From the IMG/VR virus record IMGVR_UViG_3300045988_153208: 64,000 nt of DNA; one strand, given 5' to 3'. The notes under the pieces were generated by a model. The model did no database searches and was not told the DNA's origin. It was given only the letters and a program-made list of their open reading frames with translations. The DNA comes from a virus. Positions 17,770 through 17,840 of the stretch are shown one piece after another. Position numbers and translations under genes: made by a program. Each line of letters opens with the position of its first letter. The stretch's first letter is position 1.

Positions 17770-17840
17770 TCCGGCTTGGAGTAATGGTAGCCCGCCTGAC
17801 TCTAAATCAGGTCGCCTCGGTTCGAATCCGAGAGCCGGTG
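17770..17840 (+). tRNA. Amber suppressor tRNA(CUA), Gln-like (reads TAG)
   Basis: Anticodon stem CCTGA/TCAGG loop CTCTAAA (anticodon CTA); T-arm CTCGG-TTCGAAT-CCGAG; acceptor TCCGGCT/AGCCGGT with weak 1-72 pair and G73 as in tRNA-Gln; loop differs from the tRNA-Gln(CUG) CUCUGAC by one base. Confidence 0.7.

Follow-up and report, generated by a model that had tools for sequence, protein, structure and literature searches.

Phages that use genetic code 15, in which TAG is translated as glutamine (Gln), carry suppressor tRNAs and include the crAss-like, Lak, Jade, Sapphire, Garnet and Amethyst clades (10.1101/2021.08.26.457843; PMC9523058). Use of this code in phages was predicted several times and has been validated by metaproteomics (Peters et al. 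2022, PMC9523058). In the current study we analyzed a 64,000 nt stretch of DNA from the IMG/VR virus record IMGVR_UViG_3300045988_153208, referred to below as the window, which contains a tRNA gene with the anticodon CUA. We conclude that this phage very probably uses code 15 as well: UAG would be read as Gln by a phage-encoded amber suppressor tRNA, and TAA and TGA would terminate translation. The work of Ivanova et al. in 2014 is said to be a further study of code-15 phages.

Suppressors of the same specificity are found in bacteria. In Escherichia coli supE (glnV44), the anticodon of tRNA-Gln(CUG) is changed from CUG to CUA (G36A), and the resulting tRNA inserts Gln at UAG in competition with release factor 1 (RF1). 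Theta ribozymes of gut Caudoviricetes sit at the 3′ ends of tRNAs, 20% of them at suppressor tRNAs (Kienbeck et al. 2024, PMC10879173); 4.5% of the tRNAs associated with theta ribozymes encode CCA, and the phages are enriched for an RNA ligase of the DRB0094 family (PMC10879173). The gut-virome phage phAss-1, of the proposed Phassvirus, is ∼136 kb in size and has TAG in 41 open reading frames (ORFs) together with suppressor tRNA genes (Babkin et al. 2023, PMC10607447).

The window has a G + C (GC) content of 33%, and its + strand holds essentially all genes and 25-27 tRNA genes. When 24 kb of the window was compared with GenBank phages using megablast, zero matches were obtained. A protein of 830 aa resembling the major vault protein (MVP) has relatives in 45 IMG/VR loci, on contigs of up to 402 kb, and the closest GenBank records by protein are the 462-735 kb ‘huge phages’ LR756500-LR756503, with ∼41% identity in this MVP-like protein. 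Because of these large contigs, the huge-phage matches and the lack of a GenBank megablast match, the window is, judging from its sequence, a piece of the genome of an uncultivated jumbo phage. Five IMG/VR contigs of 128-198 kb, all from IMG sample 3300045988, share 92-98% DNA identity with the window, apart from many insertions and deletions. The coordinates of the features discussed are collected in Table 1.

Suppressor tRNA gene with a glutamine-type body

ARAGORN called a 72-nt tRNA with the anticodon CTA at 17770-17841, and the tRNA model of Rfam matched 17770-17840 with 55.0 bits (gathering score 29, E 4e-9). Both programs thus found the tRNA that a first-pass annotation, made by reading the sequence, had placed here with the anticodon loop CUCUAAA. 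The cloverleaf is canonical, with GG in the D loop, the T loop TTCGAAT, an anticodon stem of 5 bp and a variable loop of 4-5 nt. The U1.U72 mismatch and the discriminator G73 can be read directly in it, in agreement with the weak 1-72 pair and G73 proposed earlier as Gln-like elements. CCA is not encoded, the 3′ end being G73-C-GG. The sequence of the tRNA is 100% identical in five close IMG/VR relatives.

We searched one genome per species, covering 185,579 bacterial and archaeal species, with a pattern consisting of the D loop of the suppressor, the four loop-proximal pairs of the anticodon stem, the loop flanks and part of the T arm, with the anticodon masked. Ten loci matched, distributed over Bacillota, Planctomycetota, Chloroflexota, Verrucomicrobiota and Gammaproteobacteria, and without exception they are tRNA-Gln(CUG), with the loop CUCUGAA, U1-A72 and G73. 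They agree with the suppressor at 50-55 of 71 positions; their loop is one substitution away from that of the suppressor. Since every body-matched bacterial tRNA is a tRNA-Gln(CUG), the suppressor is, on this comparison, a tRNA of the Gln(CUG) type with a G36A change. The possibility that it is a recent copy of another tRNA of the window or of related loci was rejected, the best identity being 67%, to a tRNA-Thr.

A mismatched or weak 1-72 pair together with G73 is common to all five suppressor lineages of the phage family, including those of the distant relatives L014, L019, L041 and L045. The suppressors of these four differ in sequence, and in two of them the D arm is the classic Gln one of the GCCAAGCGG type. 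Those of L014 (1115-1206) and L045 (20477-20573) have an extra arm of 20-25 nt after the anticodon stem, which is either type II-like or an insertion, and retain the 1-72 mismatch and G73.

The first-pass annotation had also related the suppressor loop to that of the phage's own tRNA-Gln(CUG), given as CUCUGAC. This part was not borne out: CTCTGAC is found only at 28007, outside any tRNA, and the sole Gln-like candidate for reading sense codons in the window is split (Table 1). No intact tRNA-Gln was called in the window by ARAGORN or Rfam. Depending on the choice of junction, the joined anticodon loop of the split gene reads CUG, UUG or UUC; ARAGORN picked UUC (Glu) despite the Gln-like body. 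The sequence favours UUG over CUG, because the flanks of the interruption include 24 nt identical to an intact tRNA-Gln(UUG) of the relative L019. The insert is closed by a 7-bp stem (CGAGAAA/TTTCTCG) and is kept in close relatives; its length is below that of typical group I introns. Around the interrupted gene Rfam gave zero ribozyme or intron families, and the interrupted tRNA-Gln did not fold better than shuffled sequences (z = 0.67).

Evidence for TAG as a sense codon

When only TAA and TGA were taken as stops, the + strand contained 66 non-nested ORFs. A total of 103 in-frame TAGs were found in 34 of the 66; 50 ORFs end on TAA and 16 on TGA. Over 16,432 codons the frames are broken by TAG alone, never by TAA or TGA. 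The recovery of coding density that would be expected under translation table 15 was observed and was specific to the + strand, where coverage by ORFs of at least 100 aa increased from 50% with the standard code to 75% with TAG as a sense codon. With TGA as a sense codon this coverage was 55%. Treating TAA as sense gave 65%, but the gain is non-specific because the coverage of the − strand was inflated to 47%. We also tried the gain in ORF coverage per locus as a classifier of recoding in relatives. It allows no conclusion, since a phage contig that uses TAG stops (L049) showed a gain as well.

The 32 ORFs free of TAG provide a separate view of termination. None of them ends on TAG, whereas TAG is the stop of 3 of 13 genes on L049, a phage contig that uses the standard code and carries a homologous HNH gene. 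In these 32 ORFs the endings agree with the earlier claim that genes end on TAA or TGA. Pfam domains span TAGs in HNH, GIY-YIG, radical SAM, PIN-PhoH, endolysin and ATP-dependent DNA ligase genes, and solved structures extend this to GyrB, so that most of the list of TAG-dependent genes in the first-pass annotation was recovered. The remainder is less secure. Of the three listed glycosyltransferase genes of family GT8, one gave a Pfam match across its TAGs, below threshold (18.3 bits versus a cut-off of 24.3), and serine hydroxymethyltransferase (SHMT) and GyrA were recognized only by inspection of their translations.

Residue at TAG positions

Four TAGs lie in motifs with an invariant Gln. 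In gyrB the sequence NRNT-[TAG]-AVLPLKGK aligns with NRKNQAILPLKGK of solved structures from standard-code organisms, placing TAG in the invariant Gln column as noted previously, and the site is CAA or CAG in relatives. In the endolysin, AVRSF-[TAG]-SKNGL lies in a PG_binding_1 domain, and Gln stands opposite the TAG in four of four PDB chains, again as the first reading had it; the relative L022 has CAA at this site. For PhoH the claim needed an amendment: the motif has two TAGs rather than one, GDA-[TAG]-T-[TAG]-VDD against GDI-TQVD of solved structures. The second TAG falls in the Gln column, and the first, at 49472, is in a one-residue insertion. The fourth case is the motif N-L-Q-L-L-C-x-x-C-H of an HNH endonuclease, where a paralogue at 25481 has the same TAG, a paralogue at 4463-4921 has Gln, and the homologue on the verified standard-code contig L049 has CAA.

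A broader comparison pointed in the same direction. Over 46 TAG positions with paralogues or relatives, the BLOSUM62 sum was highest for Gln (56), followed by lysine (Lys, 35) and glutamate (Glu, 27), and Gln was the commonest partner of TAG among paralogues. In orthologues with at least 85% identity, TAG is conserved at 16 positions, and three of the four changes at TAG are exchanges between TAG and CAG (once in the MVP-like gene and twice in the SHMT gene). Counting Gln at TAG columns among 120 HNH homologues from databases was dropped as primary evidence, because in the public protein collection the TAGs of near-identical relatives appear as Q, which makes such counts circular. Proteins P0001-P0003 of that collection are of this kind, their genes having been called with code 15. 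The four invariant-Gln motifs, the BLOSUM order, the exchanges between TAG and CAG, the tRNA-Gln(CUG) body and the 1-72/G73 elements together argue that TAG is read as Gln by the suppressor tRNA.

Promoter, ribozyme candidate and RNA-repair genes

The suppressor gene is preceded by a perfect sigma-70 consensus promoter. The window has seven perfect TTGACA-17-TATAAT sites, all on the + strand, against a chance expectation of 0.06. They lie at 14244, 17658, 24044, 24568, 26038, 53061 and 59629, have similar, A/T-rich spacers, and precede tRNA-Pro, tRNA-Sup, tRNA-Gly, gyrB and small ORFs.

Immediately 3′ of the tRNA is an element that resembles theta ribozymes, which are related in form to that of hepatitis delta virus (HDV). 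It can be folded into P1 (GGCATTA/TAATGCT, with a G1.U wobble), P2 (GTAAGA/TCTTAC) and P1.1 (CC/GG), with the core CCTCCCCGTGG and a J4/2 junction CTAAT containing a putative catalytic C at 17884. G1 (G17842) adjoins G73-C74 of the suppressor. The same arrangement, with G7118, is seen at tRNA-Asp (7043-7117), in which CCA is likewise not encoded. The tRNA-Asp copy shares with the suppressor copy the core, ACCTCNNCGTGG, and the CTAAT junction, and matched the Rfam family HDV-F-prausnitzii with 34.4 bits (E 0.006), short of the gathering score of 44. The layout of the suppressor copy thus recurs, with different helix sequences, at tRNA-Asp of the window, and it is also seen 3′ of a tRNA-Thr in L041.

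P1, P2 and P1.1 are complementary in four distinct sequences with differing helices, a small sample in which pairing was checked by hand. In L017/L048, P1 has a compensatory double change from C-G to U-A; in L003/L047, pairing in P2 is kept through a G.U wobble; and the J4/2 sequence CTAAT is invariant across all copies. L012/L046 lack the element, and there CCA is encoded at the end of the tRNA. From these patterns, the element at the suppressor is probably an active ribozyme.

The window also encodes enzymes of RNA repair. A distant DRB0094-type ligase (40480-41865) matched phrog_968 (1.6e-59) and, far below the cut-off, TIGR02306 (36.7 bits). A Pnkp-like kinase, adjoining metallophosphoesterases and a nucleotidyltransferase are present as well.

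From this organization we infer a pathway for the suppressor. The gene would be transcribed from its own promoter and the 5′ leader trimmed by RNase P of the host. The ribozyme, starting right after C74, would remove the 3′ trailer in cis; the cyclic-phosphate end would then be healed and CCA completed by enzymes of the host or the phage. Once charged with Gln by the glutamine system of the host, the suppressor tRNA would compete with host RF1 at UAG.

Distribution of TAG among gene classes

The density of TAG differs strongly between gene classes (Table 1). Most TAG-rich segments are insertions lacking in at least one close relative; the radical SAM island at 20158-24033, for example, is missing from close relatives. 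TAG density tracks low GC and the use of CAA, and mutational bias may therefore lie behind some of the gradient. At the other end lies the code-neutral block, with 18 core genes in which TAG occurs neither in frame nor as a stop. Its products include TROVE-like, MVP-like and SPFH proteins, a nucleotidyltransferase, a DraRnl-like RNA ligase and a Pnkp-like kinase with phosphoesterase. The in-frame TAGs within the block are four in a strain-variable insert (33683-34399), one in 38933-39178 and one in the SHMT gene. When every ORF of the block is counted, 6 of 175 Gln-type codons are TAG, compared with 97 of 402 elsewhere (Fisher P = 5e-11). Such a block fits the published idea of genes that can be translated before suppression is established (10.1101/2021.08.26.457843).

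Seven ORFs (19546, 29058, 30758, 40480, 44413, 59712 and 62365) have a GC content of 0.41-0.47. Their Gln codons are 88 CAG, 6 CAA and no TAG; in the rest of the window CAA predominates by ∼6:1. This bias toward CAG could stem from the level of expression, from a different origin or from reliance on one particular tRNA.

Genes of the homing-endonuclease type (GIY-YIG and HNH) are strain-specific insertions between tRNA genes, and one of them (17892-18617) lies immediately 3′ of the suppressor-ribozyme unit. At 20158-23759 two genes resembling radical SAM/SPASM peptide maturases follow an ORF rich in Cys, Gly and Ser, and a third such gene lies at 12451-13716. This very AT-rich and TAG-rich cassette, absent from close relatives, looks like one for ribosomally synthesized and post-translationally modified peptides. 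Two host-like membrane transporters in the tRNA region, one of the DctA/GltP type (10167-11342) and one of the formate/nitrite transporter family (13670-14266), have one TAG each.

Table 1. Features of the window and density of TAG by gene class
Feature	Position	Strand	TAG per 1000 codons	Remarks
Amber suppressor tRNA, anticodon CUA, tRNA-Gln(CUG)-type body, U1.U72, G73	17770..17840	+		ARAGORN, Rfam, bacterial body matches
Perfect sigma-70 consensus promoter, TTGACA-17 nt-TATAAT	17658..17686	+		84 nt upstream of suppressor tRNA
Candidate HDV-like theta self-cleaving ribozyme, 53 nt	17842..17894	+		G1 directly after C74
Second theta/HDV-like ribozyme candidate	7118..7185	+		Directly 3′ of tRNA-Asp (7043-7117)
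In-frame TAG in gyrB (53145-55040)	54456..54458	+		Aligned with invariant Gln of NRKNQAILPLKGK
In-frame TAG in PIN-PhoH gene (48368-49621)	49478..49480	+		Aligned with Gln of GDITQVD
In-frame TAG in endolysin (49693-51531; CHAP, PG_binding_1, Amidase_2, SH3)	50392..50394	+		Gln of ‘FQ’ motif
In-frame TAG in HNH endonuclease gene (14958-15632)	15144..15146	+		N-L-Q-L-L-C-x-x-C-H motif
tRNA-Gln-like gene interrupted in anticodon loop	16661..16857	+		Interruption of about 121-124 nt
AT-rich island, three GT8-like genes	51..2794	+		19 in-frame TAGs
AT-rich accessory island, Cys-rich ORF and two radical SAM/SPASM-like genes	20158..24033	+		15 in-frame TAGs
Code-neutral block	28439..45801	+		Near-identical translation under code 11 and code 15
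Homing-endonuclease insertions	17892-18617, 14893-15905, 24612-25650, 26718-27456, 33590-34562			
GT8 island			20.8	GC about 0.20
HNH/GIY-YIG and related endonuclease genes			19.1	
Radical SAM/Cys-rich islands			14.0	
Endolysin and holin-like gene			6.8	
Replication and nucleotide genes			2.2	
Core genes of RNA-repair block	28.4-45.9 kb		0	4,299 codons

Alternative explanations

Several observations weigh against the assignment of code 15 and the pathway proposed for the suppressor. The TAA and TGA endings are partly true by construction, being circular for the ORFs that contain TAG, and a few TAGs within 12-15 codons of the ends of ORFs could be real stops. With the strictest flank filter, Gln and Lys are nearly tied in the BLOSUM comparison (31 versus 29), and the proteins are rich in Lys. 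The elements recognized by E. coli glutaminyl-tRNA synthetase (GlnRS), G2-C71, G3-C70 and U38, are absent; the suppressor has C2-G71, C3-G70 and A38. This weakens a direct analogy with charging in E. coli, the organism in which the elements were defined. The Rfam search around the suppressor gave zero ribozyme matches, and no theta-specific model was seen among the Rfam matches; P4 is at most vestigial (8 nt). Finally, the window lacks genes for RF2, GlnRS and a CCA-adding enzyme.

It is hardly credible that TAG is still a stop in this phage, with decaying or fragmented ORFs and a tRNA(CUA) that gives incidental read-through at most. The TAG-richest genes are indeed mobile or accessory, absent from close relatives, and could be dispensable. 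But TAG is the only codon that interrupts these frames, and homology continues across the TAGs; essential single-copy genes (gyrB, gyrA and the ligase gene) carry TAG, its positions are conserved in orthologues (16 of 17) and swap with CAG, and the absence of TAG terminators in the TAG-free ORFs differs from their use in L049. We give very little weight to the idea that the host itself uses code 15 or supplies a suppressor, the phage tRNA being a supplement. This idea has no support within the window; the phage carries its own, perfectly conserved suppressor and keeps a large code-neutral block, as expected if translation starts in a standard-code cell. An amino acid other than Gln (Lys, Glu or pyrrolysine) is very improbable as well, although Lys is second in the BLOSUM ranking and comes near Gln at the strictest filter. 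All four invariant columns give Gln, never Lys or Glu, the body matched tRNA-Gln(CUG) at every bacterial locus, and G73 with the weak 1-72 pair fits Gln. Bacterial tRNA-Lys has A73. Pyrrolysine is suggested by the ARAGORN label ‘tRNA-Pyl’, which is given because of the anticodon alone, and by the three radical SAM genes of the window, PylB being a radical SAM enzyme. In tRNA-Pyl the D loop is small, the anticodon stem is 6 bp long and the variable loop has 3 nt. We rejected pyrrolysine, given the normal D and T loops, the 5-bp anticodon stem and the absence of PylS, PylC and PylD from the window; the radical SAM genes are SPASM or peptide-maturase-like, and none matched the PylB model.

Two further proposals build on the reading of TAG as Gln. 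In a timed switch, early genes avoid TAG, and late and lysis genes that contain TAG await the build-up of enough suppressor to outcompete RF1. We regard this extension as possible but tentative. The TAG-free core of the block and the depletion of TAG over all its ORFs, the five TAGs in the endolysin and holin-like gene, and the candidate theta ribozyme at the suppressor all agree with it. However, the perfect host-type promoter of the suppressor suggests early, strong transcription, and gyrB, gyrA, phoH and the ligase gene, which do not as a rule belong to the late genes, contain TAG as well. The densities are moreover highest, at 14-21 per 1000 codons, in homing-endonuclease genes and AT-rich islands, compared with 6.8 for lysis genes, and the mutational bias mentioned above may account for part of the gradient. 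The model itself has been published by Borges and Kienbeck with their respective co-workers (10.1101/2021.08.26.457843; PMC10879173). A more far-reaching proposal, which we consider unlikely, is that the genome constitutes a feed-forward code switch: TAG-free genes for end healing and sealing would enable maturation of the suppressor, which in turn would unlock the TAG-containing genes. The Pnkp-like kinase, phosphoesterase, nucleotidyltransferase and DraRnl-like ligase may heal a suppressor precursor ending in a C74 2′,3′-cyclic phosphate, and the TAG load of homing-endonuclease genes and accessory islands may act as a ‘code lock’ that keeps them silent outside recoded infections. If true, the lock would confine the spread of these elements to code-15 phages.

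Other RNA and ribonucleoprotein features

Further RNA elements were noted in the window. A sub-threshold match to the twister-P1 ribozyme at 9082-9133 (50.7 bits versus a gathering score of 67.2, E 1e-8) lies within the tRNA array, ∼60 nt before tRNA-Ser(GCU). There are also two weak tRNA-like fragments, of which the one at 16330-16402 is a 3′ part and the one at 16406-16482 has a GAU-like anticodon loop but no proper T arm; they may be tRNA remnants or further split tRNAs. Odd tRNA calls were made at 8108-8177, 15637-15707 and 8321-8393, being respectively an extra tRNA with the anticodon CAU (Rfam only), an aberrant, AT-rich tRNA-like call whose ‘anticodon’ has 2 nt, and a tRNA-Phe in which the anticodon is AAA, which is unusual. 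A sub-threshold match to Y RNA-like (YrlA) RNA at 11347-11477 adjoins tRNA-Ile. At 29058-30587 a TROVE-like protein with DUF2828/DUF7788 is encoded (phrog_850, ‘RNA-binding protein’), and, at 30758-33250, the MVP-like protein with its major-vault-protein shoulder and repeat domains. Taken together, the Y RNA-like match and these two proteins suggest a Ro/vault-like ribonucleoprotein module of the phage.

Comparison with known systems

Code 15 in phages and theta ribozymes associated with tRNAs are already published, and the established picture is unchanged by this locus. For the annotation of this phage family the consequence is practical: translation table 15 is required, because the standard code breaks about half of the genes. 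As a clean natural example, the locus combines a suppressor of the supE type with a promoter of its own and a 3′ ribozyme candidate that would act in cis. Strains that carry the ribozyme element and strains that encode CCA form a natural contrast that bears on whether theta ribozymes take part in the maturation of suppressor tRNAs. The gradient of TAG across gene classes adds a small data point to the question of whether recoding is regulatory, mutational or both.

Like the code-15 phages, this phage combines low GC, in-frame TAG at Gln positions, apparent TAA and TGA terminators and a phage tRNA(CUA), has TAG in lysis genes and contains code-neutral gene blocks. The related contigs (128-400 kb) are similar in size to the code-15 clades of 154-210 kb. 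Unlike in those phages, TAG is densest in homing-endonuclease genes and AT-rich islands rather than in lysis genes; the window itself is without a structural module. It shares with phAss-1 in-frame TAG in ORFs plus a suppressor tRNA gene; phAss-1 has three suppressor genes and the window one. No nucleotide similarity to phAss-1 was detectable among GenBank phages, and the 830-aa MVP-like protein gave no match to such records.

The suppressor resembles supE in being of the tRNA-Gln(CUG) type with the same G36A change. It differs from supE in being a dedicated phage gene that would serve ∼100 sense TAG codons in the window, and in its acceptor stem, which has U1.U72, C2-G71 and C3-G70 where supE has U1-A72, G2-C71 and G3-C70. 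With tRNA-Pyl it shares the anticodon CUA only.

As at theta ribozymes, G1 of the candidate lies within 1-2 nt of the 3′ end of a tRNA, here a suppressor without encoded CCA, and the phage is TAG-recoded and has a DRB0094-family-like RNA ligase in the window. The suppressor copy departs from the published theta ribozymes in its extremely short P4 and in having no Rfam match. The candidate also shows a presence/absence polymorphism within the species, in which strains lacking the ribozyme encode CCA. As far as sequence features go, the locus is thus that of a code-15 phage with a supE-type Gln suppressor and a candidate tRNA-associated theta ribozyme, and it is distinct from tRNA-Pyl.

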